64,000 nucleotides of DNA from NCBI GenBank assembly GCA_020279385.1, contig GCA_020279385.1_4762.2. One strand, given 5' to 3'. The notes under the pieces are model-generated. The model made no database searches. It was not told where the DNA came from and saw nothing but the letters and a program-made list of their open reading frames with translations. A program made the translations under genes and the position numbers. Below are positions 13,921 to 34,721 of the stretch, one piece after another (positions within the stretch are counted from its first letter, which is position 1; each line of letters opens with the position of its first letter). Origin of the DNA: a phage.

Positions 13921-13928
13921 AATAAGTG

Positions 13929-13957: not shown

Positions 13958-13988
13958 ACAACCATCAAAAACAAGTGAGGATTTTATT

Positions 13989-16211: not shown

Positions 16212-16219
16212 ATTGGGTG

Positions 16220-16248: not shown

Positions 16249-16272
16249 ACGCACATCGAAACGGAGGAACAT

Positions 16273-16491: not shown

Positions 16492-16498
16492 AAAGTAG

Positions 16499-16527
16499 TT
16501 GACACTGAATAACGGGGGTAGTAATAT
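16499..16527 (+). promoter_or_regulatory. PeSL-like promoter cassette (TTGACA-17-TAATAT) with hairpin spanning -10
   Basis: Inverted repeat GGGGGTA...TACCCCC around -10; leader catcgaaacgaaacaaaggagaatcaaa; near-identical copy at 16780. Confidence 0.7.
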
Positions 16528-16560
16528 ACCCCCATCGAAACGAAACAAAGGAGAATCAAA

Positions 16561-16779
16561 ATGAAATTTACTTGCACCGACTCTATCAGCAAACACTTTG
16601 TAGTAGGAGAAGTATACGAATCTACTACCATTCGCCAGCGTGACCTGATGGGTCGCCTTTACAATCAGCCAGTATTCATTATTGGTGAAGAATTGTTCTA
16701 CATTGAAAACCGTCCGTGGGTTGCTTTCAATAAACGAGGACGCAAGGTAGCAAAATTCGAACTTGTCATTAAAAAGTAG
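16561..16779 (+). CDS. hypothetical protein (72 aa)
   Basis: ATG after conserved leader. Confidence 0.5.
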   Translation: MKFTCTDSISKHFVVGEVYESTTIRQRDLMGRLYNQPVFIIGEELFYIENRPWVAFNKRGRKVAKFELVIKK

Positions 16780-16808
16780 TTGACAGCATGAAACGGGGGT
16801 AGTAATAT
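16780..16808 (+). promoter_or_regulatory. PeSL-like promoter cassette (TTGACA-17-TAATAT), copy of 16499 cassette
   Basis: Same hairpin/-10 and leader as the 16499 cassette. Confidence 0.7.
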
Positions 16809-16849
16809 ACCCCCATCGAAACGAAACTAACTTACTAAGGAGTATCAAG

Positions 16850-17248
16850 ATGATTAAATTTCAAACTCGCAAAGACGTTCTGGACTTCGTTAAAGTTTTC
16901 GGTTACGCTGCATTGCAACATGCAATGGACAAAATGACCATCTCCCCAGATCAGACTATGCTGATCCGTATGGTTAAAGCAACCGCCTACAAAAACGACA
17001 TTACCCTCTCAGAAATCAACGACGGTAATAATGTCCGCGAGGTAATTGTTTCTTTCGAATCACCGAAAATTGGCGGTTTTCATACCACGATGTTAGGTGA
17101 AATCACTGTCACTGTATACGGGCAAGGTGGCGGAGTGTTTACCGTCAAAGAAGCAATGGAAAACGGAACACTGAACAAAGAAAAACTGGAATTTGTCCTG
17201 AAAATCATCAAGGAGCGTAACGAAGCTCGCGATATTCTGGAAAGTTAA
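16850..17248 (+). CDS. hypothetical protein (132 aa)
   Basis: ATG after cassette leader and RBS AAGGAG. Confidence 0.5.
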   Translation: MIKFQTRKDVLDFVKVFGYAALQHAMDKMTISPDQTMLIRMVKATAYKNDITLSEINDGNNVREVIVSFESPKIGGFHTTMLGEITVTVYGQGGGVFTVKEAMENGTLNKEKLEFVLKIIKERNEARDILES

Positions 17249-22211: not shown

Positions 22212-22680
22212 AATTGATATCTATGCGGGTGGACCTTATCCATCTGGTGAATTGAGTAATTTCAATAAAAGACCATTCCGTCTATTTGGTTGCGATATTA
22301 ACAGCACAGAAGGATTTTTACAGGGGCTAAGATTTAAGAACCCTCAGAGACAAAGAGAAATCTTTTTGATGCACGGTGGCAAAGCAAAAAGAACCGGAAG
22401 AACTGAAAAGATTGAGAATCACATGTTATATTTTCAGGGTCGCCCGATTCATCGAATGAGTGAGCATTATTACAGACTGGTACATCTGGCATTTGTTACG
22501 ATGGCACGGAATAACCCAGAATTTTGTAAAGCATTACTCGCTACCGGAAATAAGAAATTACGTCATAGCATAGGTGGAACTGATCCGTTAAAGACTATAT
22601 TGACTGAATCGGAATTTTGTAGTATCCTCAATGATATTCGTGAACGTTTAACAAAACGAGGTGAAAATGTCAATTCTTAA
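22201..22680 (+). CDS. NADAR / YbiA-like domain protein (putative ADP-ribosyl- or N-glycoside hydrolase)
   Basis: 159 aa; ELSNF...F......STEGFLQGLRF resembles the YbiA/NADAR FSNF...TSEHYFQA.KF core; LLATG and GGTDP segments also align with YbiA-like proteins. Confidence 0.5.
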   Translation: MTSEIDIYAGGPYPSGELSNFNKRPFRLFGCDINSTEGFLQGLRFKNPQRQREIFLMHGGKAKRTGRTEKIENHMLYFQGRPIHRMSEHYYRLVHLAFVTMARNNPEFCKALLATGNKKLRHSIGGTDPLKTILTESEFCSILNDIRERLTKRGENVNS

Positions 22681-24163
22681 TATCATTAACCAGCTTGCAG
22701 CGACCGACAAAACATCGCTGAAAGAAAAGATTCTGAAAGAATCCGCGAGCAATGAAACGCTGAAAGAATGCTTTTATCTGGCATATTGCAAACAGGTTAC
22801 GTTTGGCGTAAAGAAATACGATAAACCATCGCGCTATTCGTCTGTATTGTCTTTATCCGGTGCATTACAGGTCTTTAAAAATAAACTTGCCACGCGTCAA
22901 GTAACTGGTAATGCAGCATTACAGCTAGTTACCGATACTCTGACTTGCTTGTCAGAGGATGATGCTAAAGTTGCAATGATGGTCCTGAATCGTGATCTGG
23001 AATGCGGTTGTTCCGCCACCACTGCAAACAAGGTATGGAAGAAACTGATCCCCCAGCAGCCGTGTCACCTTGCATCGTCATATTCTGATAAGGCTATTGC
23101 TAATATCAAGTATCCGGCGTATGCACAACTTAAAAGCGATGGTGCTCGTGGTATGGCTGATATTGACGGGGAAACATTAGCAATCTATACCCGTTCAGGT
23201 AATACCTATCAGGGACTTGATGATTTGTTTGCGGTTTTAGAGCGTCTACGAGGCCGTGGAATTGTTCTAGATGGCGAATTGGTATATATGCCTACCCTTT
23301 CGCAAACACCAGCGCAGAACTTCGTTGAGAGCGTTTATGATGGTACTCTGTCATGGATATTTGAAGAAGAGGAAATGCCATTAACGCCAGTAGCGGAAGC
23401 AGTAAAAGAATCCGTTGTTGCAGACCGTCAGACCGGAAATGGTATCCTCAACAAATCACTTAAAGGAACTATTCCAAAAGAAGAAGCCCAATGTATTGTT
23501 TATACTGTCTGGGATGTTATCGACCGTGATGTGTATTACGGAAACGAGAAAGCAACGAAGCAATATAAAGATCGATTCGAAGAACTAAAACAGATTGTTG
23601 AAGAACTTAACGATCCTCGTGTTCAGATAATCGAAAATACTGTAGTTAACAATATCGATGAAGCTCGCGAAGTATATCATCGCTATGTAAACATGGGCTT
23701 AGAAGGTATTATCCTTAAAAATTTACATGGTGTATTTGAAGATCGTCGCAGTAAAGATCAGGTTAAATTTAAAGAAGTGATTGACTTCGACGCTGAAATT
23801 GTTGATGTATATCCGCATAGTAAAGATCCTAATAAGGTAGGCGGTTTTACTGTCCGTAGTGCGTGCGGACGAATGATGACTAACACCGGATCGGGATTAA
23901 CCGACACCACAACCGAAAAAGGTGATGATGGTATTGAACGTGTAATTCCGTTCGATCGTCGAAATGAACTCGACCGAGAAATGTTATGGGCTGACCGTCA
24001 TAACCTGATTGGAAAAGTCATTGAGATGACATGCAACGGGTACATTCGCAGCAAATCACGTAAAGAAGATGAACCGGAGTTCTCTTTATTTCTCCCGATC
24101 ATCAAACGTATTCGCTACGACAAGACCACTGCAAATACAGTAAAAGAGGTATTCGATGTGTGA
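22667..24163 (+). CDS. 30: ATP-dependent DNA ligase
   Basis: ~498 aa; KSDGAR adenylation lysine motif, LDGELVY, NGILNKSLKGTIPKEEAQC, GLEGIILKN, KFKEVID, GGF; colinear with T4 DNA ligase; ATG 22667 after RBS GAGGTG. Confidence 0.9.
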   Translation: MSILNIINQLAATDKTSLKEKILKESASNETLKECFYLAYCKQVTFGVKKYDKPSRYSSVLSLSGALQVFKNKLATRQVTGNAALQLVTDTLTCLSEDDAKVAMMVLNRDLECGCSATTANKVWKKLIPQQPCHLASSYSDKAIANIKYPAYAQLKSDGARGMADIDGETLAIYTRSGNTYQGLDDLFAVLERLRGRGIVLDGELVYMPTLSQTPAQNFVESVYDGTLSWIFEEEEMPLTPVAEAVKESVVADRQTGNGILNKSLKGTIPKEEAQCIVYTVWDVIDRDVYYGNEKATKQYKDRFEELKQIVEELNDPRVQIIENTVVNNIDEAREVYHRYVNMGLEGIILKNLHGVFEDRRSKDQVKFKEVIDFDAEIVDVYPHSKDPNKVGGFTVRSACGRMMTNTGSGLTDTTTEKGDDGIERVIPFDRRNELDREMLWADRHNLIGKVIEMTCNGYIRSKSRKEDEPEFSLFLPIIKRIRYDKTTANTVKEVFDV

Positions 24164-24632
24164 TAATGAAGGGGCGAAAGCCCCTAAACCTAAAAAATTG
24201 TCAAAGAAAGAGCAACGCCAGATCCTGAAAATGAAATACGGTGGACGTTGTGCCTATTGTGGCGAGGAACTAGGGGATCGCTGGCACGCAGACCACATCA
24301 AACCAGTATTGCGACGCTCAAAAGTAGTCTATGATGAAAATGGACGAATTGCCCGTAATGATGATGGATCGTGGAAGTATAAGGTTGTAGGAATGCATAA
24401 ACCGGAACATGATATACTTGATAACATGAATCCGTCGTGTGTGCAATGCAATCTTTATAAAAGCTGTATGGGCTTAGAATACTGGCGTAAGTGTATACGC
24501 GAGAACTTCCAGAAATACATTCAGCGCAATATGGGGTTGCGAGCGGCTAAACGCTTTGGCTTACTGTCAATCCACGACCAGCCAGTAGAATTTTATTTCG
24601 AAAAGTATGAGCGCGAGCATCAAGAAAAATAA
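24156..24632 (+). CDS. HNH endonuclease
   Basis: 158 aa; CAYCGEELGDRWHADHIKPV...NMNPSCVQCNLYK HNH zinc-finger nuclease motif; start overlaps ligase stop. Confidence 0.75.
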   Translation: MCDNEGAKAPKPKKLSKKEQRQILKMKYGGRCAYCGEELGDRWHADHIKPVLRRSKVVYDENGRIARNDDGSWKYKVVGMHKPEHDILDNMNPSCVQCNLYKSCMGLEYWRKCIRENFQKYIQRNMGLRAAKRFGLLSIHDQPVEFYFEKYEREHQEK

Positions 24633-24645
24633 TTCAAAAAAGTTG

Positions 24646-24674
24646 TTGACAGGGGATCACCGATCCCCTATACT
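24646..24674 (+). promoter_or_regulatory. PeSL-like promoter cassette (TTGACA-17-TATACT)
   Basis: Palindromic spacer GGGGATCACCGATCCCC; leader acacataccgaaacgaactaggagaatcaa. Confidence 0.7.
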
Positions 24675-24708
24675 ACACACATACCGAAACGAACTAGGAG
24701 AATCAATT

Positions 24709-24888
24709 ATGAACTTCAACGAAATCATCGCTAAAATCCGCTACAACGAAGAAACCATTGAACTGATGCAAAACAATATCACCAATGGTTATATGATTGC
24801 AGCGTCACAAGAAATCATTGATTTGACGGTAGCAGAAAATGCTCAGTTGAAACATCAACTTTCAACGGCTGGCGTGATTGTTATGTAA
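24709..24888 (+). CDS. hypothetical small protein (59 aa)
   Basis: ATG 24709 after cassette leader; track start 24607 precedes the promoter. Confidence 0.45.
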   Translation: MNFNEIIAKIRYNEETIELMQNNITNGYMIAASQEIIDLTVAENAQLKHQLSTAGVIVM

Positions 24889-24905
24889 TAAAGAGAGGTG
24901 ACTAA

Positions 24906-25208
24906 ATGGCAAAAGTTAAGGTAGGCGAGGTCTTCAAAATGGAAGACCACACCGTGGAAGAGATGAAAGGCGCAGTATTGAAAGTAACTAATTCAATGTG
25001 TCGTAGTGTGCTTTACATCAACTTTATAGACGGTGATGTGTGGTGGGCTAGCGATAGCGATAAATGGGATATCAAGTTCTACAAAGGTCATACTCACTGG
25101 TTAGGAACAGAGGATGTTGTAGAAGTTCTGGCGGTTGATGTTATGCCAGGCGAGATCGAAAGTCTTAGCGGAACCGCAAAAGAAGCATTGACACGCCATT
25201 TTGTGTGA
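24906..25208 (+). CDS. small protein, HxHW-LAVDV paralog family member
   Basis: 100 aa; C-terminal KGHTHWLGTEDVVEVLAVDV motif shared with five neighbouring ORFs. Confidence 0.5.
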   Translation: MAKVKVGEVFKMEDHTVEEMKGAVLKVTNSMCRSVLYINFIDGDVWWASDSDKWDIKFYKGHTHWLGTEDVVEVLAVDVMPGEIESLSGTAKEALTRHFV

Positions 25209-25214
25209 TATAAT
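25188..25214 (+). promoter_or_regulatory. possible sigma70-like promoter (TTGACA-15-TATAAT)
   Basis: TTGACA 25188-25193, TATAAT 25209-25214; short spacer, followed by hairpin GGGAG...CTCCC. Confidence 0.35.
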
Positions 25215-25265
25215 ATAACAATCATTGGGAGGGGTAATACTCTCCCACAAATTGAGGATAATATT

Positions 25266-25457
25266 ATGTGTGGTCTTAAAATGGTTGCTGAATATAAGCG
25301 AACTGGTAATATTATTATGTATCGACGCAATGCCAACGAAGACTGGAAACCTTCCAACCGCATTAAATCCATCCAGACGTTTATGAATAACATCAAAGAA
25401 AACCTTTTCGTTAAGCGTGTTGGCGCTGAACATTGGGAAGTTTACGAAGCTGTATAA
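25266..25457 (+). CDS. hypothetical small protein (63 aa)
   Basis: RBS GAGGA + ATG. Confidence 0.45.
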   Translation: MCGLKMVAEYKRTGNIIMYRRNANEDWKPSNRIKSIQTFMNNIKENLFVKRVGAEHWEVYEAV

Positions 25458-25473
25458 TTTTGAGGAAAATATT

Positions 25474-25776
25474 ATGGAACGTACCAATTTGTTTGTAACC
25501 GAACCTTTCGTTGAAGGAAACAAGAACCTTGCTAATACGGTTATTCTTTACGAAGATTGGATCTTTTACATCGATGAGAATTTAGATGTATATTGTCGTC
25601 CAACCCCAAATGACTCATTCTATATCGAAGAAAACGATACCCATAATCATTGGTATGACGGAAACGACGAAACCGATCTTGCTATTGTTCTCGAATCCGG
25701 CGTAGAATCGGAACATGCCGATGAAGTAGCAGACAAATTTATGAAATACGCATATAAAGATAAAGTTGAAGAATAA
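25474..25776 (+). CDS. small protein, HxHW paralog family member
   Basis: 100 aa; WIFYIDENLDVY and THNHWYDG...LAIVLE motifs; ATG 25474 (track start 25417 is inside previous gene). Confidence 0.5.
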   Translation: MERTNLFVTEPFVEGNKNLANTVILYEDWIFYIDENLDVYCRPTPNDSFYIEENDTHNHWYDGNDETDLAIVLESGVESEHADEVADKFMKYAYKDKVEE

Positions 25777-25784
25777 AAAAGTTG

Positions 25785-25813
25785 TTGACAGGGGATCGGT
25801 GATCCCCTATAAT
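25785..25813 (+). promoter_or_regulatory. PeSL-like promoter cassette (TTGACA-17-TATAAT)
   Basis: Palindromic spacer GGGGATCGGTGATCCCC; near-identical to cassettes at 29045 and 31421. Confidence 0.75.
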
Positions 25814-25846
25814 GCACACATACCAACGAGATATAGGAGAATCAAA

Positions 25847-26014
25847 ATGTTCCAGACTAAAGCAGAATGCGAAGCATACATTGTAGCAAACCACGGTGAA
25901 GACTACCTGAAATTCGATATCGTAGTAGCACAGAAGATCACCGGAATGGTTGCAAAATATCTAGGTGTTAAAGAAGGTTACTATCCAAGCAACGCACCAG
26001 AAATTAACAAATAA
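25847..26014 (+). CDS. hypothetical small protein (55 aa), paralog of the 29107 ORF
   Basis: MFQTKAECEAYIVANHGEDYLKFDIVVAQK... about 85% identical to the 29107 product. Confidence 0.5.
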   Translation: MFQTKAECEAYIVANHGEDYLKFDIVVAQKITGMVAKYLGVKEGYYPSNAPEINK

Positions 26015-26017
26015 TAG

Positions 26018-26046
26018 TTGACAATGATTAAAGGGAGTAGTAAGAT
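26018..26046 (+). promoter_or_regulatory. PeSL-like promoter cassette (TTGACA-17-TAAGAT)
   Basis: Hairpin GGGAGTA...TACTCCC spans -10; leader catcaagacaacaaacggagaatcaaa. Confidence 0.6.
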
Positions 26047-26078
26047 ACTCCCATCAAGACAACAAACGGAGAATCAAA

Positions 26079-26258
26079 ATGAAAGCTATCGAAGTTCAGA
26101 AGTACATGGAACTCATCATTGAAGGTAAAGCACATACAGTATTGACTACCAACGTAGGATATGATAAAAATGTGCATATGCTGGTAGACAATATCGGCTG
26201 GATGAAGTTTAATCCTAATGAGAATGTACAAGCTCAAGAAATGACCATCCCTTTCTAA
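26079..26258 (+). CDS. hypothetical small protein (59 aa)
   Basis: ATG after cassette leader; below track cutoff. Confidence 0.4.
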   Translation: MKAIEVQKYMELIIEGKAHTVLTTNVGYDKNVHMLVDNIGWMKFNPNENVQAQEMTIPF

Positions 26259-26270
26259 GAGGAATATATT

Positions 26271-26549
26271 ATGATGCGAATTACTGCAACGCTGGATAAG
26301 ACACACAAAGAAAGATTTTTCGGTATGATCTTAAAAACGCCGATTTTCGATAATTACCTTTATGTTGACTATGAAGGCCATATTAGCTATAAATGTAAAA
26401 ATGATATTCGTGATTCCTTTGGTGATAAATCACAAGCTGATATTCACGATCATTGGTGGACCTTCGACGAACCTTTACGGATTATCGCAGTTGATGTAAA
26501 AACAATAAAAGAAGCTGATAAGGTAGTTAACGATTATGAGCAAATTTAA
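26271..26549 (+). CDS. small protein, HxHW-LAVDV paralog family member
   Basis: 92 aa; YLYVDYEGHISY and IHDHWWTFDEPLRIIAVDV. Confidence 0.5.
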   Translation: MMRITATLDKTHKERFFGMILKTPIFDNYLYVDYEGHISYKCKNDIRDSFGDKSQADIHDHWWTFDEPLRIIAVDVKTIKEADKVVNDYEQI

Positions 26550-26745
26550 AGACTATAAAGCATATCAACAGATCCTGCGAGTATACGCACCAGAGTTCGC
26601 CGAAAAGATGATGGAAGATGCATCAAAATGCCCGTCCTTTTCTGGAAACAAAAACCATTATTCGACTGGTATTGTGTCATGGAAAGAAACCGCATATACT
26701 CAACAATGGATAGATGTGTTTTCAAAAACTCTTGAGTGGTGTTAA
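26536..26745 (+). CDS. hypothetical small protein (69 aa), tandem paralog A
   Basis: MSKFKDYKAYQ... shares N-terminus and Cys/Trp pattern with next ORF. Confidence 0.5.
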   Translation: MSKFKDYKAYQQILRVYAPEFAEKMMEDASKCPSFSGNKNHYSTGIVSWKETAYTQQWIDVFSKTLEWC

Positions 26746-26747
26746 TT

Positions 26748-26963
26748 ATGAGCAAATTTAAAGATTATCGAGCATATAAAGCGATCTGCGATATATTCGA
26801 TGAAAAGACCGCTCATGAAATGATGGAAGATGCAGAACAATATGAATCATTCGTCAATTCCAAAGATTGCACAGTAAACGGGATTGTGTGCTGGAAAGAT
26901 ACAAAGTATGAAGAAAAATGGATTACCGTGTATTACGGAGAACTAGAATATGAAATTAACTAA
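26748..26963 (+). CDS. hypothetical small protein (71 aa), tandem paralog B
   Basis: MSKFKDYRAYK...; ATG 26748. Confidence 0.5.
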   Translation: MSKFKDYRAYKAICDIFDEKTAHEMMEDAEQYESFVNSKDCTVNGIVCWKDTKYEEKWITVYYGELEYEIN

Positions 26964-27270
26964 AAAGATTTTCCCAGAATTGCGTAACTGTCTGTTATTG
27001 GTTACTGAATATAAGCCGTATACGATCTACTTGTATGTTGATGAAAATCTGAAAATCCGTTACTATGATTATACGTCTCCAGTGATGAAATCATTTGCTC
27101 ACTCGATAGCAAATAACTGTATGAATCACAATCATTGGGTATCAGAAACGGATGACGATGCGTCAGAAGTTGTAGTGGTTGCATGGAATCTATCACCAGC
27201 GGAAGCAGATCAAGCACGCATTAAGCATTATGCGAAAAACAATTGGTTTGACCTTATAAGTGAGGACTAA
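26950..27270 (+). CDS. small protein, HxHW paralog family member
   Basis: 106 aa; IYLYVDENLKIRYYDY and NHNHWVSE...VVVVAWN. Confidence 0.5.
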   Translation: MKLTKKIFPELRNCLLLVTEYKPYTIYLYVDENLKIRYYDYTSPVMKSFAHSIANNCMNHNHWVSETDDDASEVVVVAWNLSPAEADQARIKHYAKNNWFDLISED

Positions 27271-27274
27271 TATT

Positions 27275-27553
27275 ATGTTCAAAGTAGGTGATAAGTTTAT
27301 TCTTAGTCGTGATATTCTCCCTAATCTGAAAGGTTGTATCATCAATCCTAGTAAAAATTCATGGTTTTATCTGTTTATCGACGACAAACTGAATGTACGC
27401 GCAGAATATAAAGAAGGTCTTCGTACTGGTCTAGGTTTCTTTCACGATCATGATCATAGCCATTGGTTAAACGGTGGATTCGAAGCAACGGTGCTAGCGG
27501 TTGACGTGACCTACACAAACATCATAGAAAAATATCAAAAAATTATTTTATAA
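27275..27553 (+). CDS. small protein, HxHW-LAVDV paralog family member
   Basis: 92 aa; WFYLFIDDKLNV and HDHSHWLNGGFEATVLAVDV; ATG 27275 with RBS GTGAGGA. Confidence 0.5.
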   Translation: MFKVGDKFILSRDILPNLKGCIINPSKNSWFYLFIDDKLNVRAEYKEGLRTGLGFFHDHDHSHWLNGGFEATVLAVDVTYTNIIEKYQKIIL

Positions 27554-27559
27554 AAAGTG

Positions 27560-27588
27560 TTGACACCGGATCGGGGATATAGCATAAT
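27560..27588 (+). promoter_or_regulatory. PeSL-like promoter cassette (TTGACA-17-CATAAT)
   Basis: Hairpin GGGGATAT...ATATCCCC spans -10; leader catcgaaacgagataca...aggagaatcaaa. Confidence 0.7.
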
Positions 27589-27634
27589 ATCCCCATCGAA
27601 ACGAGATACACTTTCTAACTAGGAGAATCAAATT

Positions 27635-27922
27635 ATGGCATACATTACTATCACTCTGAAAGTTAACAAATTTGCTCACGCTGCACACGAAACAGACAAT
27701 GCAATCCGTAACAACAAGTTCGCACGTCTGGTACGCGATGCAGTAGCTAAAGAGTTCAACTTCAAATTTGCAGACGGTAAAGTTATCACTAAATGGACTC
27801 ATGACGGAGAAACTAAAGTAGAACTTGCTGATAACTTCGCAAATCAGGAATATGCACACCGTCGCATTAATGAAATTATCAGCGATGAACTCTACTACGG
27901 TGTACAGGAAGGACTGTTTTAA
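27635..27922 (+). CDS. hypothetical protein (95 aa)
   Basis: ATG after cassette. Confidence 0.5.
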   Translation: MAYITITLKVNKFAHAAHETDNAIRNNKFARLVRDAVAKEFNFKFADGKVITKWTHDGETKVELADNFANQEYAHRRINEIISDELYYGVQEGLF

Positions 27923-27927
27923 TATAC

Positions 27928-27952
27928 GGGGCGTTAAGCCCCACCCCTTTTC
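27928..27952 (+). terminator. rho-independent terminator
   Basis: GGGGC-GTTAA-GCCCC hairpin then ACCCCTTTTCAT; same hairpin recurs at 31705. Confidence 0.65.
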
Positions 27953-27975
27953 ATCCAACTATTGAGGATAATACT

Positions 27976-28284
27976 ATGAAAGATAATATCTTTGAATTTA
28001 CCCGCGAAAATCTCCCAATGTTCCGAAAGTCTCTGCTTAAACTAGAGAACAGCAATTACAACGTATATTTTTACATCACCGAAGACCTAGAGATCCTTTA
28101 CGCAGATTATCCAGGTCCGATCCGTACCTTCGAAGAAGCATCGCAGTATAAAAATGTTCACGGTCATGAGCACTGGTTACGAGAAAACCCAGGTCGCAAG
28201 AAAGCACGCGTTAAAGTGTTGGCGATTGACATAACACCAGCATACGCCGACCGGATTGCACTGAATGATTATTTGTCTAAATGA
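27976..28284 (+). CDS. small protein, HxHW-LAxD paralog family member
   Basis: 102 aa; VYFYITEDLEILYADY and HGHEHWL...KVLAIDI. Confidence 0.5.
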   Translation: MKDNIFEFTRENLPMFRKSLLKLENSNYNVYFYITEDLEILYADYPGPIRTFEEASQYKNVHGHEHWLRENPGRKKARVKVLAIDITPAYADRIALNDYLSK

Positions 28285-28292
28285 TTTCATTA

Positions 28293-28320
28293 GCCGACCT
28301 TAGTGTCGGCTTTTTTATTT
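28293..28320 (+). terminator. rho-independent terminator
   Basis: GCCGAC-CTTAGT-GTCGGC hairpin followed by TTTTTTATTT. Confidence 0.8.
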
Positions 28321-28339
28321 CCAAAAATTAAAAAAGTTG

Positions 28340-28368
28340 TTGACACCTGATCACGCCTATAGCACAAT
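28340..28368 (+). promoter_or_regulatory. PeSL-like promoter cassette (TTGACA-17-CACAAT)
   Basis: Same architecture and leader (acacatcgaaacgagataccacttaggagaatcaaa); -10 slightly degenerate. Confidence 0.55.
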
Positions 28369-28408
28369 ACACACATCGAAACGAGATACCACTTAGGAGA
28401 ATCAAACA

Positions 28409-28678
28409 ATGGCACTGACTAAAACCACTACCAACTTTGCAAAACGTCACGGCTTCGACCTTGAAATCAATAGCTTTAACGATTACACCCTTCTGTGTGT
28501 ATATGAAATCGAAAATGATTGCGAGTGGATGTTCAGCTATCGCGTAAACGAAGACGGATCTTTCACTTGGAACGGAAATATCTATCTTGCACAGGAAGTA
28601 AAAGAAGAACTTCCGGCGACTATCAAAGATGAGAAACATTTACGTCAAGTTTTAAAATTTATTTCTGAAAATATCTAA
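28409..28678 (+). CDS. hypothetical protein (89 aa)
   Basis: ATG after cassette. Confidence 0.5.
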   Translation: MALTKTTTNFAKRHGFDLEINSFNDYTLLCVYEIENDCEWMFSYRVNEDGSFTWNGNIYLAQEVKEELPATIKDEKHLRQVLKFISENI

Positions 28679-28686
28679 AAAAGTTG

Positions 28687-28715
28687 TTGACACCAAAGTA
28701 AGAACATAGCATAAT
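28687..28715 (+). promoter_or_regulatory. PeSL-like promoter cassette (TTGACA-17-CATAAT)
   Basis: Leader acacataccgaaacgaactggagaatcaaa. Confidence 0.65.
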
Positions 28716-28748
28716 ACACACATACCGAAACGAACTGGAGAATCAAAA

Positions 28749-29030
28749 ATGAAATTCATCAAAGCAACCGAAATCCTGAAAAACAAAGAAGCATACATCG
28801 GAAACATCGTTGGTATGAACATTCGCGGCGCTGGTAGCCAGTGGACCAAACTGGTTGATGTTAAAGCTAAAGGCGATAAAATTGAGTTCACTGTAAAAAT
28901 GCTTACTCATAACGCACATATGGGTATCAAGACAAAAACGATGGCCGCAGATAAAAGCATCAACTATCAAGATCTGGGCGATTGGTTGAACTGGTGCAAA
29001 ATGCACAACATCGAAACTAATCACGAATAA
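28749..29030 (+). CDS. hypothetical protein (93 aa)
   Basis: ATG after cassette. Confidence 0.5.
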   Translation: MKFIKATEILKNKEAYIGNIVGMNIRGAGSQWTKLVDVKAKGDKIEFTVKMLTHNAHMGIKTKTMAADKSINYQDLGDWLNWCKMHNIETNHE

Positions 29031-29044
29031 TTTTAAAAAAGTTG

Positions 29045-29073
29045 TTGACGGGGATCGGGAGATCCCCTATAAT
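29045..29073 (+). promoter_or_regulatory. PeSL-like promoter cassette (TTGACG-17-TATAAT)
   Basis: Palindromic spacer GGGATCGGGAGATCCCC; copy of the 25785 cassette. Confidence 0.7.
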
Positions 29074-29106
29074 ACACACATAACGAAACGAAATAGGAGA
29101 ATCAAA

Positions 29107-29274
29107 ATGTTCGAGACTAAAGCAGCATGTGAAGCATATATCATTGAAACCCACGGCGAAGATTATCTGAAATTTGACATTGTAGTAGCACAGAAGATTG
29201 TAGGGATGGTTGCGAAATACCTCGGAGTTAAAGAAGGTTACTATCCTAGCAACGCACCAGAAATTAACAAATAA
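29107..29274 (+). CDS. hypothetical small protein (55 aa), paralog of the 25847 ORF
   Basis: MFETKAACEAYIIETHGEDYLKFDIVVAQK...; below track cutoff. Confidence 0.5.
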   Translation: MFETKAACEAYIIETHGEDYLKFDIVVAQKIVGMVAKYLGVKEGYYPSNAPEINK

Positions 29275-29288
29275 TTTTATAAAAAGTG

Positions 29289-29317
29289 TTGACAGGGGAG
29301 GATAACTCCCCTACAAT
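29289..29317 (+). promoter_or_regulatory. PeSL-like promoter cassette (TTGACA-17-TACAAT)
   Basis: Palindromic spacer GGGGAGGATAACTCCCC; leader caaccatcaagacgagataccacttaggagaatcaaa. Confidence 0.65.
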
Positions 29318-29357
29318 ACAACCATCAAGACGAGATACCACTTAGGAGAATCAAACA

Positions 29358-29609
29358 ATGGCTAACATCGAAACCGCAAAGAAAATCGCTAAAGACCTGA
29401 ACGTTAAAGGCTTCCGTAAACTGAAATTACAGCGTGTACGCTACACCATCGGCAAACAGTGCTCTTTCATGAGCGAAGAAGTTGCTAACAGCCTCATTGA
29501 TAACCTGATTGCGGCTGGCTGGGAAGTTGCGGATCTGAAAACTTGCCGCGAACTGGCTAACAAAGGTCTTTTAGATTCTGTTACTATCAAACCAATGGGG
29601 GCAGCGTGA
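29358..29609 (+). CDS. hypothetical protein (83 aa)
   Basis: Starts MANIE, sharing its first 16 nt with the 31486 ORF. Confidence 0.5.
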   Translation: MANIETAKKIAKDLNVKGFRKLKLQRVRYTIGKQCSFMSEEVANSLIDNLIAAGWEVADLKTCRELANKGLLDSVTIKPMGAA

Positions 29610-29851
29610 AAAGAAAATTAATTAAACGCAATAAGGAATTTCTTAATAACTGCATTAAGGCCGCTAATGGTTGGCCTTTGTTCCTCTTCCTTTATGATTG
29701 GTATTCTAAACAATCGGTAGAGGAAACACGACACTATAAGAAGATCAGAAAAGAATCATATACAAAACAAGGCCGCATTAACGGACTTTACTTAATGTGG
29801 CACGGCAAAGAACCTTCTAAAATCTGTGTTGGATTAAAGGGGCGTATATGA
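29606..29851 (+). CDS. hypothetical basic protein (81 aa)
   Basis: GTG start overlapping previous stop; Lys/Arg-rich; uncertain. Confidence 0.35.
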   Translation: MKRKLIKRNKEFLNNCIKAANGWPLFLFLYDWYSKQSVEETRHYKKIRKESYTKQGRINGLYLMWHGKEPSKICVGLKGRI

Positions 29852-30564
29852 AACAAAAATTAATATTCTGCAACTTTGACGGATCGGGGATAATGGGGCT
29901 AGAATGGGCTAAAGCAGGTCATAAGGTGATCTGCTTTAATGCTGACGATGGCGACCACGGCACATACAAAAAGTATAATACCCGATTTGAACATCCAAAC
30001 ATTACCTATGTAAACACATGGATTGATTTGAACTGGCTGGAAAGAGCAATGGACCTTGAATGGGGGAAACCGGATATTATCTTTGCATTCCCACCGTGCA
30101 CCAATTTAGCTGTTAGTGGCGCTGCACACTTTGAACGAAAGAAACGAGAACAAGGACCATTGATTCAAGTTCATGATGTAAGGGCAGCTAAAATAACCGC
30201 TTATTTGGGTGAATGGCTAGGAGTTCCCTACATGATAGAGAATCCTGTAAGCGTTATCTCTAGCATGTGGCGTAAGCCTGATTATATGTTCCATCCGTGG
30301 GAATATGGTGGTTATTTGCCGGAAGATGATAAGCATCCTACGTTTCCTGAGTATATTGCCGCCCGTGATATGTACCCGAAAAAGACTTGCTTATGGACCG
30401 GACAAGGCTTTATGATGCCAGAAAAGAAACCTTTGCAGATTAATAAAGGGTACAGTAAACAGCATTCTAAGCTAGGCGGGAAAGGAACGAAAACAAAGAC
30501 TATAAGGTCACTTACCCCGCGAGGATTCGCAAAGGCAGTATTTGAAGCCAATAAGGATCTATGA
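29848..30564 (+). CDS. C5-cytosine methyltransferase-like protein (compact, no obvious target-recognition domain)
   Basis: 238 aa; motif I-like IFCNFDGSGIMG, motif IV-like FPPCTNLAVSG (Pro-Cys), motif VI-like ENPVSV, motif X-like RSLTPRGFAKAVF. Confidence 0.5.
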   Translation: MKQKLIFCNFDGSGIMGLEWAKAGHKVICFNADDGDHGTYKKYNTRFEHPNITYVNTWIDLNWLERAMDLEWGKPDIIFAFPPCTNLAVSGAAHFERKKREQGPLIQVHDVRAAKITAYLGEWLGVPYMIENPVSVISSMWRKPDYMFHPWEYGGYLPEDDKHPTFPEYIAARDMYPKKTCLWTGQGFMMPEKKPLQINKGYSKQHSKLGGKGTKTKTIRSLTPRGFAKAVFEANKDL

Positions 30565-30893
30565 TGAGATTGTTTAAGTATTCGCTAACGTCAAATTACG
30601 ATAAACAAGGTCATTGCATCCGTTGCCCTGATTGTCATAGCCATAACATCGAAAGCAAGATCACCGATCATATTGATGGACTTTGGTCGCCAGCAAGTGA
30701 AATAGAATACTATTGCTCTGATTGTGGAATTGTAGTAGCATATTGGGCATACGGATCATATGATCCATACTTCCAGATGGGAGAGCGTTCAATCCCTGCG
30801 CTCATCTGGAGAATTAAGAACAATATCCGCCATTCATGGGATGAGTTCTTAAAAGATATTGATTTACGTGATGATCCATTCAGGAGACTATAA
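30561..30893 (+). CDS. Zn-ribbon protein (110 aa)
   Basis: CIRCPDCHSH ... CSDCG; two CxxC pairs; translationally coupled to flanking genes. Confidence 0.5.
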   Translation: MMRLFKYSLTSNYDKQGHCIRCPDCHSHNIESKITDHIDGLWSPASEIEYYCSDCGIVVAYWAYGSYDPYFQMGERSIPALIWRIKNNIRHSWDEFLKDIDLRDDPFRRL

Positions 30894-30894
30894 C

Positions 30895-31413
30895 ATGAAC
30901 CGTTTAACGCCTAAACGCCGCTACTATACCAATACTAAAAACTTTGTTATCTCTGTTTACGAAGCATGGTTAGAAGATGGCTATATCAACATGAACCCAG
31001 ATTATCAGCGTCCTTTAGTATGGGACACCGAAAACAAACGTATGTTTATTGAAAACCTGATTAATGATTTTCCGGTTGGTGCTATCGCAATGGCTAAGAT
31101 TGATGATGGCTCTCGCTATGAGATCGAAATCGTGGACGGTAAACAGCGTTTAAACGCAATATTCTCCTTTATGAAGGATGAGTTTAGCATTGCCGGTAAT
31201 GATGATTCTATGTTGTATTACAGTGATTTTACGCCAGCAGAAAAGCGACGTTTCCGAAATCTCGGACTACCCGCGATCATGATGGAAGAGAGCACACGAG
31301 AAGACCGATTAGAGTATTTCTACAAAACAAACTTTTTCGGTGTGCCTCAATCGGAAGAACATCGCCAGCATGTGATTGCCCTATTGCAAGATGAGCAATT
31401 AAAAAATAACTAA
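30895..31413 (+). CDS. DUF262 / ParB-like domain protein (DGQQR-type motif)
   Basis: ~173 aa; NPDYQRPLVW and EIVDGKQRLNAIFSF resemble the DUF262 DGQQR signature; ATG 30895 with RBS CAGGAGAC. Confidence 0.55.
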   Translation: MNRLTPKRRYYTNTKNFVISVYEAWLEDGYINMNPDYQRPLVWDTENKRMFIENLINDFPVGAIAMAKIDDGSRYEIEIVDGKQRLNAIFSFMKDEFSIAGNDDSMLYYSDFTPAEKRRFRNLGLPAIMMEESTREDRLEYFYKTNFFGVPQSEEHRQHVIALLQDEQLKNN

Positions 31414-31420
31414 AAAGTTG

Positions 31421-31449
31421 TTGACAGGGGATCGGTGATCCCCTATAAT
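31421..31449 (+). promoter_or_regulatory. PeSL-like promoter cassette (TTGACA-17-TATAAT)
   Basis: Spacer GGGGATCGGTGATCCCC identical to the 25785 cassette. Confidence 0.75.
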
Positions 31450-31485
31450 GCACACATACCGAAACGAACTACTAAGGAGTATCAA

Positions 31486-31698
31486 ATGGCTAACATCGAA
31501 ATCATCATTACCGACGTAACTTATGACCGCATTAACGAAATCGGTACTGCATTACTGGAAGATGGAACAACTCGTACCATCAACTACGCAGAATACGTTG
31601 AAATGCGTGGTTGTATTAAACGAGTAGGAAAATATACCCTGATTGAAAAAGACTATTCAGGATACACCTTAGAGCAATTGCTTGATGGTGCATTATAA
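31486..31698 (+). CDS. hypothetical protein (70 aa)
   Basis: ATG 31486 after cassette; starts MANIE like the 29358 ORF; track start 31435 lies in the promoter. Confidence 0.5.
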   Translation: MANIEIIITDVTYDRINEIGTALLEDGTTRTINYAEYVEMRGCIKRVGKYTLIEKDYSGYTLEQLLDGAL

Positions 31699-31704
31699 TA
31701 AAAA

Positions 31705-31728
31705 GGGGGCGTTAAGCCCCGTTTTCAT
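31705..31728 (+). terminator. rho-independent terminator
   Basis: GGGGGC-GTTAA-GCCCC hairpin followed by GTTTTCAT. Confidence 0.7.
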
Positions 31729-31766
31729 AAATATAGGTTTATAGGTTATCAACTAGAGGATATAAA

Positions 31767-33818
31767 ATGTTTAACTTAGAAATCGACGATCTAATGATTG
31801 AATCTTTCGAGAAATGGCTGTTGACGGAAGAGGAAGAAAACTTTGGCAGTATTGCTCCTGTACAGTGCTTAAAGCCTAAGCAGAATCCTAAACAGCTTTT
31901 TGCAGTACAGACACGCGATAAAGATGTGATTGTCCGTCTTTGCAACTTCACCAACAAAACACCTAAAATCATTCGTATGGGCGACAAGACCGCACATGTT
32001 GTACTGTGCGAAATGAACAAAAGCGGTCGTATTGTACAGCTTAAAAATGGTCTAGGCGATAACCCGATTGCAGTCATGGCAAGTGCTTTTGATGTGGTTA
32101 TGGAAACAGCCCGTAAAGCGCAATTAGACGCTGTTATGTTCCGTTTTAACGTATCCCGCATGAAAGGTAAGACCGAACTGATTAAGCGCGTTATAGAGCG
32201 TTTGGTGCGTCGTACACCGAAGTTTGAAGTATTCCAGCAGGAAGTAATGACCAGCAAAAAGATCGCTTTAGTTGTTGTCAAGCGTCGCGGGATAGCGATT
32301 GATAAGATTAAAGGGATTAAACTTGATGAATCCTTGTTCACTAAAGTAGAAAGTGATTTAGGTGATCGCTGGGTATCTAAGGCTACTGGTGAATCTCTGA
32401 CTAAAGATGAAGCGTATGCGGCTAGTCTTGTGTCAGAAGAAGAACGAAACGCGGAAGCAGAACAACGCGTAGCGGCTAAATCTCGTTTGACTAAAGAAGA
32501 AATGCTGAAAACTCAAGCGACCTATAACAGCGACTATGTGAATCATCCAGAAAAAATTAATCTTAAACCGGAAGAAGATATCACCGAAGCCGAACCTAAG
32601 AAACAGTTTAATACTCTGATTGACCGTCAAGCCTTAGAACGTTCAACCGCCCGTTCTCTGAATGACTGGACAAGTGATATTATCACTCGCTATGGTTTCA
32701 TGCGTACTATTTTTGAAAGCGAAGCCGATGCAAAATACGCAGTAAGCGAACTGGTAAAAGTTCAGGATCAATATGATCCGTTGTCTGCGGAAGTTATCGC
32801 AGCATCAATCAAACGCTTAAAAGAAATCATGAGCGAGGAAGTATTCGAAAACAAGATCACCGCCCTGGCAATGGATCGAGTAGACCAGTCTATGCCAGCA
32901 GATGTAAAAGCTGAAATGCTGCGTAGTCATATCACCCAGATTAAAACCGATGCCCTACGTAATGTTGCTTCCGGTATGTTTGAAGCAATTGCTAGCAACA
33001 TGGGTGAAATGATGGCAGATATTGATCTTGATCTGCCAGGTGCGGAAGGTTTTGTGTTGAGCGAATATGCGGATGCAGCATACATCAATATGAACAACTT
33101 CCTAACCGACCGTAAGCTGGAAGAATTTGATGGTATCGCAGATCCAGAAGAATTGGTCAAGATGTGCGATGCACTGGATAATGCCTTCTCTAACTATGGT
33201 GTTAAACTTGATCCGGGTACTATTCTGTATCGTGGTATGGACTTCCGGTCTCAAATGTGGGAAACTGCACGTAAGCAAAAAGCGTTTTACTTTAAAAACT
33301 ATGTGAGCACTTCCCTTGCACCTAACATTTTTGGCGGCTGGAATGCAAACGTGGCTAGTGCCGTTGCTGGTGTTGATTCTATGGCTGGCTCTCGCGGTGA
33401 AGGTGGCGCTAATGTTGCTTTCTCCATTGCTGGCGCGGAAAACATCCCTGTATTGCCAGTAGGTAACAAAGCATTTGCTTACAAAGAATGCGAGATTTTA
33501 CTTCCTCGCGGTGTTGTGTTATCCTTTGATACGGTAACTCGTGCTACGGCATCGACGGATTCACAAGAAACTTATTACATTGAGGCACATATTATGAACA
33601 AAAATGAACTGGCAGCATTACAAGAATCTGGCGAGATGATCGCGGACGGTGATGCATTCATCCGTGAAGGTGTTGTTAAACCTGCTTCTGACCTGTCTTT
33701 CTCCAGCTTTATTACCGAAGCTAAAACCGAACGTAAGAAAGCAGATAAGGCAACTCTACGTCAGCTTATCGCTGATCTGGTATCTGTAGACGCAATGCCA
33801 GATAAATTTAAAATGTAA
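31767..33818 (+). CDS. alt: ADP-ribosyltransferase Alt
   Basis: 683 aa (T4 Alt ~682 aa); C-terminal R-S-ExE ART triad (LYRGMDF, YVSTSL, KECEILLPRG); position next to ligase region and gene 54 as in T4. Confidence 0.75.
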   Translation: MFNLEIDDLMIESFEKWLLTEEEENFGSIAPVQCLKPKQNPKQLFAVQTRDKDVIVRLCNFTNKTPKIIRMGDKTAHVVLCEMNKSGRIVQLKNGLGDNPIAVMASAFDVVMETARKAQLDAVMFRFNVSRMKGKTELIKRVIERLVRRTPKFEVFQQEVMTSKKIALVVVKRRGIAIDKIKGIKLDESLFTKVESDLGDRWVSKATGESLTKDEAYAASLVSEEERNAEAEQRVAAKSRLTKEEMLKTQATYNSDYVNHPEKINLKPEEDITEAEPKKQFNTLIDRQALERSTARSLNDWTSDIITRYGFMRTIFESEADAKYAVSELVKVQDQYDPLSAEVIAASIKRLKEIMSEEVFENKITALAMDRVDQSMPADVKAEMLRSHITQIKTDALRNVASGMFEAIASNMGEMMADIDLDLPGAEGFVLSEYADAAYINMNNFLTDRKLEEFDGIADPEELVKMCDALDNAFSNYGVKLDPGTILYRGMDFRSQMWETARKQKAFYFKNYVSTSLAPNIFGGWNANVASAVAGVDSMAGSRGEGGANVAFSIAGAENIPVLPVGNKAFAYKECEILLPRGVVLSFDTVTRATASTDSQETYYIEAHIMNKNELAALQESGEMIADGDAFIREGVVKPASDLSFSSFITEAKTERKKADKATLRQLIADLVSVDAMPDKFKM

Positions 33819-33835
33819 TTTTTAAGAAATAATGG

Positions 33836-33864
33836 TTGACTCAAACGGGGACTAGTTTTATACT
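33836..33864 (+). promoter_or_regulatory. sigma70-type promoter (TTGACT-17-TATACT); its hairpin may also terminate alt
   Basis: Imperfect hairpin CGGGGACTAG...CTAGCCCCG followed by TTTTCTGTT. Confidence 0.55.
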
Positions 33865-33896
33865 AGCCCCGTTTTCTGTTATATGGGAGGTTTAAA

Positions 33897-34721
33897 ATGT
33901 TCAAACAATTACAGGATTTTCGTCTTTCAGAAGAATCACGCGAATCAATGATGGAACGTATGGACAATTATATTGAAACATATGACATTGAGGGGATTAA
34001 TGGTTACATGATCACTGAGATGATCAGCGATCAGATTAACTTTGATGATTATGTGAAGGTTATCCGCTTCCTTGAGCGTGAGACACAAGATTATGGATTT
34101 GTCAAGAAAATCATTAATGTGATGTATGAAGTACACTCCGAAGACTTTGGAGATAATGTATTCAAACATTACAAACATAACAACATAACCCCAGCAGAAT
34201 ATAATGCAATCTGTGATTATGTATCTGAACAATACGAATGGGTAAATGGTGCTCTCTTAGGGGAAGAAGACATGACCGATGAGATATCAGAGATTGTCGA
34301 TTTGATGGATTGCGTCATGGATAAAACCGAAAAGTTAAACGGTACTCTTTATCGCGGTCAACATCTTGACATTCAGACAATAGAGCGCATCATTGAAGAT
34401 AAGGAGTTTACCTTTAAAAACTTTGTATCGACCAGCATGACACCGATCATCTTTGGAGGATGGCTATCAAACAGCACTAGCCTTTATTGTGAGAATCGAT
34501 ATGAATCAATGACCGGAAAGATGCAACATTCTTGTAATGTATCATGGGTAATTGACGTAAAAGATCATAAAGGTTTTGTTGTTGGGTCAATTGCATGGAA
34601 CCCTTGCGAATGTGAAGTAATTTTACCGCGCGGGACTTGCGTCAAGGTAAACGACGTAGTAGAATCTTTCGGCGATGAGAATCGTAGACAATTTACAATT
34701 TTCGGTGAGGTGACTAAATGA
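33897..34721 (+). CDS. Alt/Mod-like ADP-ribosyltransferase (second ART paralog)
   Basis: 274 aa; R-S-ExE triad (TLYRGQHL, FVSTSMTPIIFGGW, CECEVILPRG) parallels Alt C-terminus. Confidence 0.65.
   Translation: MFKQLQDFRLSEESRESMMERMDNYIETYDIEGINGYMITEMISDQINFDDYVKVIRFLERETQDYGFVKKIINVMYEVHSEDFGDNVFKHYKHNNITPAEYNAICDYVSEQYEWVNGALLGEEDMTDEISEIVDLMDCVMDKTEKLNGTLYRGQHLDIQTIERIIEDKEFTFKNFVSTSMTPIIFGGWLSNSTSLYCENRYESMTGKMQHSCNVSWVIDVKDHKGFVVGSIAWNPCECEVILPRGTCVKVNDVVESFGDENRRQFTIFGEVTK

Follow-up and report, generated by a model that had tools for sequence, protein, structure and literature searches.

Promoter-early stem-loops (PeSLs) were defined on the T4-like coliphages Phi1 and RB49, in hyperplastic region 3 (HPR3) of their genomes, where eight of them lie within an area of approximately 5 kb around the open reading frame (ORF) ORF192 (Arbiol et al. 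2010, PMC2839356). The present work concerns a stretch of phage DNA of 64,000 nucleotides (contig GCA_020279385.1_4762.2, here called the window), in which positions 24640-31450 carry a series of repeated promoter cassettes. This region is HPR3 of the RB49/Phi1-type T4-like coliphages of the genus Krischvirus, and its PeSL cassettes are very probably self-contained early expression units which double as portable homology for recombination.

A 7.3-kb query from the region aligned over its full length with Krischvirus genomes at 95-97 % identity, and 59 records matched, including Skers, PHB13, ECD7, GEC-3S and Phi1. On the left the region is flanked by the gp30 DNA ligase gene (22661-24163) and an HNH endonuclease gene (24156-24632, Pfam HNH), and on the right by alt (31767-33818). 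The counterpart in Phi1 comprises ORFs 185-212, and this is thus the same HPR3 locus on which Arbiol et al. (2010) defined the PeSLs. The original prediction, made from the letters of the window, had placed a PeSL-rich region of the RB49 type between the ligase/HNH genes and alt, and both the coordinates and the identity of the locus agree with it; its estimate of about 25 small ORFs is lowered to 22 between the HNH gene and alt, as counted from reading frames and the annotation of relatives.

The similarity to the PeSLs of RB49 and Phi1 includes the genus, the locus and the recurring indel loci ORF192 and ORF210, as well as the architecture: a stop codon in an AT-rich tract, sigma70 -35 and -10 elements, a stem-loop of variable position, a Shine-Dalgarno (SD) sequence and the ATG of an ORFan. 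Individual cassettes are near-identical, up to 75 of 80 positions with PeSL206/205 of Phi1. As published, PeSLs are conserved over about 100 bp, often have a polyG...polyC stem and lie preferentially in hyperplastic regions just ahead of ORFans, and the cassettes of the window agree with this. There are no essential differences; the window lacks the ORF210, ORF192 and ORF186 modules, and one of its cassettes (at 28687) has no stem. The finding is a rediscovery of the published, already known PeSL system at its type locus.

More distant systems share single features with the cassettes. For PeSL analogues in other T4-like phages (T4/PST and KVP40/nt-1), Comeau et al. (2014, PMC4122927) describe composite terminator/promoter motifs in hyperplastic regions, acting as exchange points between otherwise unrelated sequences, but the T-even counterparts are analogues with T4-type early promoters and not homologues (Arbiol et al. 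2010). Integron cassettes (attC and IntI), a comparison drawn by Arbiol et al. (2010) themselves, are likewise small promoter-associated single-ORF modules with a hairpin repeat at the boundary, and circular excised intermediates have been reported for PeSLs. They differ in that no integrase was found here among the ORFs of the region (PHROG scans, and Pfam on 10 ORFs), the crossover is not fixed, each unit has its own promoter instead of a common Pc, and recombination appears to be driven by homology. Lambdoid morons (Hendrix et al. 2000) are also autonomous units of promoter, gene and terminator added to a phage genome, and the 'linker' sequences of Botstein and Campbell are conserved boundary sequences mediating modular exchange, whereas here the regulatory cassette itself appears to be the recombination substrate.

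The cassette family of HPR3

Nine full cassettes were found in the region as direct repeats of approximately 85 bp, each ahead of a small ORF, together with one variant promoter:

24629-24711, + strand: PeSL cassette 1; -35 TTGACA at 24646, hairpin GGGGATC-ACC-GATCCCC in the spacer, -10 TATACT, leader ending in GGAGAATCAA, ATG at 24709
25188-25268, + strand: variant promoter; TTGACA-N17-TAATAT (10/12), downstream stem GGGAG..CTCCC at about 25229-25248, alternative translation initiation region (TIR) GAGGATAATATTATG
25768-25849, + strand: PeSL cassette 2; perfect TTGACA-17-TATAAT (12/12), spacer GGGGATCGGTGATCCCC; orthologue of Phi1 PeSL206/205
26001-26081, + strand: PeSL cassette 3; stem GGGAGTA/TACTCCC over the -10 TAAGAT, fold -15.2 kcal/mol (z -5.3)
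27543-27637, + strand: PeSL cassette 4; stem GGGGATAT/ATATCCCC over the -10 CATAAT
28292-28411, + strand: PeSL cassette 5; canonical terminator (28292-28311) and T-run upstream, TTGACA (28340)-17-CACAAT, no stem in the promoter
28670-28751, + strand: cassette 6; TTGACA (28687)-17-CATAAT (11/12), conserved leader, no stem-loop, fold -0.5 kcal/mol
29028-29109, + strand: PeSL cassette 7; TTGACG, spacer GGGATCGGGAGATCCCC, -10 TATAAT
29272-29360, + strand: PeSL cassette 8; spacer GGGGAGGATAACTCCCC, -10 TACAAT, leader as in cassette 5
31404-31488, + strand: PeSL cassette 9; perfect TTGACA-17-TATAAT

The full module consists of an A-tract, TTGAC(A/G), a 17-nt spacer, the -10, a conserved leader, GGAG(A/T)ATCAA and the ATG, with -35 elements starting at 24646, 25785, 26018, 27560, 28340, 28687, 29045, 29289 and 31421. 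All ten promoters, i.e. the nine cassettes and that at 25188, match 10-12 of the 12 sigma70 consensus positions with a 17-nt spacer and have the A-tract (aaaaagttg or aaaaagtg) ahead of the -35, and in eight of them the distance from the upstream stop codon to the -35 is 3-14 nt. The element GGAG(A/T)ATCAA is found 1-4 nt ahead of the ATG in all nine cassettes, and all nine exact matches to the decamer GGAGAATCAA in the 64-kb window lie within cassettes. The ORFs downstream of the cassettes match only PHROGs of unknown function.

Eleven ORFs had originally been credited with the full module. Nine of these hold; the promoter at 25188 has a different leader, the match at 27248 is promoter-like, overlaps an ATG and has no leader, and both were missed by the profile and rejected as family members. 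It had also been proposed that several cassettes sit inside the 3' ends of upstream genes. This is so for the -35 at 25188, which lies within ORF 24906-25208, 21 nt before the end of its stop codon, but in the nine full cassettes the -35 begins 3-55 nt past the upstream stop codon, and nothing but the A-tract reaches into the last codons.

It could be argued that such elements are chance promoter-like matches in AT-rich intergenic DNA, and a lax sigma70 scan of the region, with 41 sites compared to 33 ± 6 in shuffled sequences, is indeed not above chance. Only strong matches (at least 10/12) are informative. When the 12 consensus positions were scored over 24600-31500 against 300 dinucleotide shuffles, seven sites of at least 11/12 were found on the + strand and none on the - strand, with 0.13 ± 0.36 expected, and 13 sites of at least 10/12 on the + strand and none on the - strand, with 1.9 expected. 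In leave-one-out nhmmer searches eight of the nine cassettes were recovered at E ≤ 3e-12 (down to 1e-19), and the leader alone, downstream of the -10, recovered eight of nine at E ≤ 1e-5. The copies thus share more than promoter hexamers. As the family is also kept at orthologous positions across 59 genomes, chance matching is refuted as an explanation.

The individual copies differ in strength and composition. Cassette 1, ahead of a 59-aa ORF (24709-24888), is matched by the profile with E 8e-24 (leave-one-out E 2e-17) and folds at -13.0 kcal/mol, and the weakest copy is cassette 3 (leave-one-out E 2e-3). The differences between cassette 2 (25785) and Phi1 PeSL206/205 comprise three loop positions, one position in the -10 (a change towards consensus) and one in the initially transcribed sequence (ITS). 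Cassettes 5 and 8 have a leader in common and different spacers, and both are therefore mosaics. Promoter annotations are present in GEC-3S at sites homologous to the window cassettes.

The stem-loops are more variable in position than originally described, namely as a GC-rich palindrome usually in the spacer. In five of the ten promoters the stem is in the spacer, in two it lies over the -10, in one upstream (28292-28311), in one downstream (25188) and in one (28687) it is absent. This spread agrees with the published positional subclasses of PeSLs, which comprise five positions (Arbiol et al. 2010). Folding energies of -13 to -16 kcal/mol were obtained for seven of the ten promoters. Base pairing is kept through different arm sequences, i.e. 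GGGGATC/GATCCCC, GGGGAG/CTCCCC, GGGAGTA/TACTCCC, GGGGATAT/ATATCCCC and GGGTGTAT/ATACACCC. The last two pairs occupy the same position, that of cassette 4, in the window and in relatives; two stem positions are changed, each on both arms, with Watson-Crick pairing retained. Across the window and 18 relatives the first arm is always G-rich and the second C-rich. Cassette 6 (28687), whose orthologues in relatives are likewise without a stem, is the only one to be regarded as a promoter and leader cassette and not as a strict PeSL.

Apart from this, the spacer GGGGATCACCGATCCCC at 24652-24668 is the exact reverse complement of GGGGATCGGTGATCCCC at 25791-25807 and 31427-31443, so that the inversion is confined to the 3-nt loop. 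Across the 19 genomes, promoter cores that do not differ otherwise carry the loop in either orientation (ACC or GGT), and the inversion could stem from template switching mediated by the palindrome or from short conversion tracts. A role for Dam methylation was considered, as there are two GATC per spacer, but this idea was dropped since the enrichment is modest (13 compared to 5.7 per kb); GATC is over-represented in the whole window (367 compared to 232 expected).

Functional data exist for near-identical orthologues. In lacZ assays of promoter and terminator activity, Phi1 PeSL206/205 gave approximately 13,000 Miller units, and termination by the stem-loop of PeSL211/210 was comparable to that by rrnB T1 (Arbiol et al. 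2010). In Phi1, the cassette ahead of ORF210 has the same spacer, GGGGATCGGTGATCCCC, as cassettes 2 (25785) and 9 (31421). According to Nolan et al. (2006), the early consensus of RB49 agrees with the mapping of early-transcript 5' ends by Desplats et al. (2002). Promoter strength, hairpin termination and the formation of mini-circles would carry over to the window by analogy with these orthologues from the literature. Our own observations are that the repeats form a family with strand polarity and stems, that indel junctions coincide with them, that hybrid cassettes occur and that one module is duplicated.

The SD element GGAGAAUCAAA, which is invariant in the cassettes, matches 10 of the 11 positions of GGAGRAYARAA, the target consensus of the T4 RegB/S1 endoribonuclease (Durand et al. 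2006, PMC1702504). T4 RegB/S1 sites are likewise located in the SD of early genes; the difference is the C at position 8 of GGAGAAUCAAA, a position with a strong preference for A. RB49 encodes a divergent RegB, and from this resemblance GGAGAAUCAAA might be a RegB/S1 cleavage site, so that each cassette would provide post-transcriptional shut-off of its early mRNA.

Proposed mode of action and gene turnover

In the mechanism that we propose, each cassette of approximately 85-100 bp would act as a self-contained early expression unit. It would begin with an A-rich, UP-like tract overlapping the end of the upstream gene, followed by a near-consensus sigma70 promoter which unmodified host RNA polymerase would use immediately after infection. 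The G-run/C-run hairpin, present in or next to the promoter in most copies, would be transcribed only by read-through from upstream, and would attenuate this read-through and insulate the unit. At its downstream end the unit would have a conserved leader without structure and then a strong SD (GGAGAAUCAAA), which is 6-8 nt ahead of the start codon (ATG) of a small ORFan. The co-oriented copies, near-identical over 25-95 bp, would at the same time provide portable homology for the general recombination machinery of the phage, and unequal crossovers between them would delete, duplicate, insert or swap modules of a cassette and its ORF or ORFs with the neighbours undisturbed. It is these crossovers that would make the region hyperplastic. 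We infer that the proneness to recombination is a selected property of the cassettes and not a by-product.

Gene gain and loss were followed with chained BLAST alignments of window positions 22600-34000 against the homologous stretch of 18 relatives, and the copies were surveyed by nhmmer on the ligase-to-alt stretch of the window and the same relatives (19 genomes). The survey gave 195 cassettes with an identifiable -35 and 79 distinct promoter cores. All 195 are on the same strand, so that exchanges between them yield deletions and duplications and not inversions. Thirteen distinct structural events were found, eight of which are at cassettes:

Event 1: insertion of the ORF210 module at cassette 1, junction overlap 61-75 bp
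Event 2: larger two-ORF insertion at the left edge of cassette 1
Event 3: replacement from cassette 1 to cassette 2 in PTE-Eco09
Event 7: module of approximately 500 bp at cassette 5, overlap 95 bp
Event 8: in G2494 and FL38, insertion of the ORF192 module at cassette 7 (left edge)
Event 9: in Brandy, UPWr_E1 and JK32, deletion from cassette 7 to cassette 8 with loss of ORF 29107-29274, overlap 90 bp
Event 10: 2.3-kb deletion between cassettes 7 and 9 in MIZ4, overlap 75 bp
ORF186 event: module at cassette 9, present in 13 of the 18 relatives and absent in the window

Cassette 1 is accordingly a breakpoint of three events, with cassette 2 as the right breakpoint of the third. Cassette 7 marks with its left edge the insertion site of the RB49-type ORF192 and is the left parent of deletions 9 and 10, and at cassette 5 the entire unit of approximately 95 bp serves as the recombination repeat. 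In the genomes that carry extra modules there is a cassette on either side of the module. The window genome, without the ORF210, ORF192 and ORF186 modules, has its own mix of cassette variants; for ORF210 and ORF192 this is the state expected after mini-circle excision. The overlap is 24-95 bp at most cassette junctions and at most 17 bp at the other junctions. As a side observation, the promoter ahead of the RB49-type ORF192 in G2494 (8138-8200) has a stem GGGAGTAT/ATACTCCC over a TAAGAT -10 and no recognisable -35. It is a degenerate PeSL, and the junction homology there is limited to the AT-rich tract.

The cassettes at deletion junctions are clean chimeras of the left and the right parent. 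The position of the crossover varies, being at the A-tract/-35 in MIZ4, at the -10/ITS in Brandy and in the leader in cassette 9 of the window. This cassette is itself a hybrid, its parents being the cassettes on either side of the Phi1-ORF186 module as found in 13 of the 18 relatives. In the type-A cassettes, variants of the loop, the -10, the ITS and the leader are found in nearly every combination, with all four gametes in five of six segment pairs. A module of cassette and ORF is in addition present twice in the region:

25774-26015, + strand: cassette and 55-aa ORF module, copy 1; paralogue of 29034-29275 (86 % nucleotide and 89 % amino acid identity)
29034-29275, + strand: cassette and 55-aa ORF module, copy 2; 3.2 kb from copy 1, lost in Brandy, UPWr_E1 and JK32 via cassettes 7 and 8

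The homology of the duplicated module extends from the A-tract to the stop codon, directly ahead of the next cassette. The chimeric cassettes with variable crossovers and the segment mosaicism point to general homologous recombination over short repeats and not to a fixed site-specific cut.

Several observations weigh against a dual role of the cassettes in expression and exchange. Five of the 13 events (24903-24908, 25268-25460, 26401-26534, 29622-29849 and 30892-30895) are off cassettes, with 0-17 bp of homology, and the cassettes are thus not required for plasticity. Ten of 18 junction ends are in cassettes, which make up 10.8 % of the DNA of the region. With a uniform null this gives P of about 1e-5, but with a null restricted to gene boundaries, 9 of 23 of which carry a cassette, P is no lower than about 0.05. 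The 13 events were counted without a phylogeny, so some may not be independent. With regard to the hairpin, cassette 6 (28687) has no stem, the spacer-type stems precede TATAAT and ACAC with no U-run, and a terminator role of these stems would be derived from one published assay of one stem-loop. The coincidence of cassettes with gene presence/absence breakpoints, which the original prediction had suggested as a test, is borne out by eight of the 13 events, with long junction homology and chimeric cassettes, and is marginal by the stricter null. The association of cassettes with indels is real, and the cassettes are not overwhelmingly preferred once gene boundaries are allowed for. It also agrees with the published figure of 10 of 14 differential ORFans (Arbiol et al. 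2010).

The cassette-less events and the marginal enrichment could mean that the repeats are nothing more than strong early promoters whose leader is favoured, maintained by selection for expression, and that dispensable genes come and go at any gene boundary by illegitimate or microhomology-based events, the link to cassettes being incidental. That promoter-only consensus sites elsewhere are not indel sites fits this view as well. However, it would not explain why most cassette junctions overlap by 24-95 bp and yield clean parental hybrids, why the duplicated module is bounded exactly at cassette edges, or the four-gamete mosaicism, which indicates frequent exchange within cassettes. Moreover, cassette-to-cassette mini-circles have been detected at this locus by inverse polymerase chain reaction at ORF192 and ORF210 (Arbiol et al. 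2010), the loci of events 8 and 1 here. We therefore consider an incidental link unlikely and prefer homologous exchange between the cassettes.

An integron-like, site-specific system, in which a dedicated recombinase or DNA-binding protein would act on the GGGG...CCCC hairpin to cut and join cassettes, with homology in a secondary role, was raised as a possibility by Arbiol et al. (2010). The conserved polarity of the stems and the pairing kept through different arm sequences speak for it, and the ACC and GGT loops are compatible with extrusion of a hairpin or cruciform. Three crossover positions were found, though, two of them outside the stem, and the crossover zones of the published mini-circles likewise vary in position (Arbiol et al. 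2010). Cassette 5, with no stem in its promoter, recombines over 95 bp of homology, and no integrase or recombinase family was found among the ORFs of the region (PHROG scans, and Pfam on 10 ORFs). Such a system is therefore very unlikely at this locus, and homology-driven exchange between cassettes remains our preferred explanation.

The same features, i.e. the two loop orientations, the polarity from G to C and the pairing across different arms, are hints of a hairpin that starts exchanges. It is conceivable, though doubtful, that during replication of the phage DNA the G-run/C-run element is extruded as a hairpin or cruciform and initiates exchange through a structure-specific nuclease, a binding protein or template switching. 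If this were true, the cassettes would represent a recombinase-independent, integron-like system of gene capture. We infer that the proneness to recombination is a selected property of the cassettes and not a by-product.

Cargo genes and copies outside the region

The genes carried by the region are ORFans of unknown function together with a DNA methyltransferase, a Zn-ribbon protein and a GmrSD_N-only protein. Pfam searches with 10 ORFs of the region gave only HNH, a sub-threshold Zn-ribbon match and GmrSD_N, and the PHROGs matched were families of unknown function and one methyltransferase. Two further features of the region are:

29358-31413, + strand: five-ORF block without internal promoters, start and stop codons overlapping or abutting; absent in MIZ4 (deletion from cassette 7 to 9)
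27928-27950, + strand: predicted terminator-like hairpin GGGGC-GTTAA-GCCCC followed by ACCCCTTTT, after ORF 27635-27922

The homologue of this hairpin is annotated as a terminator in GEC-3S and G2494. The five-ORF block encodes proteins of 83 aa and 81 aa, the DNA methyltransferase (29848-30564), the Zn-ribbon protein (30561-30893) and the GmrSD_N-only protein (30895-31413). The methyltransferase belongs to phrog_757 and is named Dcm in some records, and the GmrSD_N-only protein (172 aa) consists solely of the N-terminal GmrSD domain (DUF262), with no nuclease domain. Judged from this gene content, the block could be an epigenetic or anti-restriction module. Its 81-aa ORF (29606-29851) is missing from UPWr_E1, JK32 and G2248 through a precise deletion whose junctions overlap by approximately 16 nt, the junction sequences GAAAAGAAAATTAAT and GAAACAAAAATTAAT being alike by eye, and in these three genomes the methyltransferase is annotated with 672 nt compared to 717 nt.

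Several of the small ORFs are paralogues. ORFs of approximately 100 aa at 24906-25208, 25474-25776, 26950-27270, 27275-27553 and 27976-28284, and possibly 26271-26549, share the C-terminal motif 'HxHW ... V(L/V)A(V/I)D'. A profile of three members finds the other two with E 6e-7 and 5e-5, and the PHROGs concerned (9345, 17255, 15965 and 16486) are all unannotated. The tandem paralogues at 26536-26745 (69 aa) and 26748-26963 (71 aa) are 46 % identical, both start with MSKFKDY, and the pair varies in relatives. A second TIR motif, GAGGA(N1-2)AATA(N)TATG, lies ahead of four cassette-less ORFs (25254, 25462, 27262 and 27964, + strand), with no further match to the pattern in the window on either strand. 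UPWr_E1 and FL15 have a 191-bp deletion or replacement at 25268-25460 with its junction in a 17-bp repeat of this second TIR, so the short TIR repeats are also exchange points.

Copies outside the region were searched with a profile built from the in-region copies only. Matches were obtained at 7831, 9056, 13916, 16217, 16488 and 16768, all on the + strand, ahead of the orthologues of ORFans 240, 239, 233, 228, 227 and 226, respectively. Seven outside copies had been proposed originally, and six of these are found by the profile; the seventh, at 33836, is a promoter with a stem-loop but was missed by the profile and is not counted in the sequence family.

7831-7911, + strand: distant family member (E 4e-6), ahead of the ORF240 orthologue
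9056-9121, + strand: distant family member (E 6e-5), ahead of the ORF239 orthologue
13916-13980, + strand: distant family member (E 8e-6), spacer hairpin CGGGGA-GAAA-TCCCCG (-15.3 kcal/mol), ahead of the ORF233 orthologue
16217-16855, + strand: three family members with -35 at 16220, 16499 and 16780, ahead of the orthologues of ORFans 228, 227 and 226
33836-33899, + strand: PeSL-type promoter and stem-loop after alt, stem over the -10 and then TTTT (-20.6 kcal/mol); promoter annotation in GEC-3S

The alt gene (31767-33818) is followed by a shorter paralogue (33897-34721), residues 487-593 of the one and 151-257 of the other being 37 % identical. The alt paralogue has a PeSL-type promoter and stem of its own at 33836, and these probably also end alt transcription. 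Two segments, 6140-6810 (upstream of gene 32) and 7901-8759 (in or next to the ORF240 orthologue), gave no Phi1 alignment at megablast level and may be further mosaic segments beside the cassettes at 7831 and 9056.

Near-consensus promoters without the cassette leader also occur within the core genes rnh, ORF245, gp33, gp59, td and pseT, which shows that a promoter alone does not make a cassette. Sites of at least 11/12 in core genes lie at 3249-6734, 11150, 11530, 19498 and 20502 (+ strand), upstream of the next core gene; the genes holding such near-consensus promoters include ORF247 and pseT.2 besides rnh, ORF245, gp33, td and pseT, again with the leader absent. In the whole window 27 sites of at least 11/12 are on the + strand and one is on the - strand. 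Presumably, following the RB49 literature, the core-gene promoters may replace T4 middle promoters in a phage without MotA.

Among 50,697 phage records the cassette family was found in the 59 Krischvirus records only, and in addition in two IMG/VR contigs, and Rfam gave no match anywhere in the 64-kb window. The value of the window is confirmatory. The published inference from two genomes is borne out by 18 further genomes that have become available since 2010. The claim is tempered by the approximately 40 % of indels in the region that occur without cassettes, and current understanding is unchanged. Few concrete mechanisms have been put forward at the sequence level for modular evolution of the Botstein type in large lytic phages, and PeSL cassettes are one of them. 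They account for the turnover of accessory early genes in T4-like phages with the essential operons undisturbed; many of these accessory genes probably have roles in host takeover or counter-defence.

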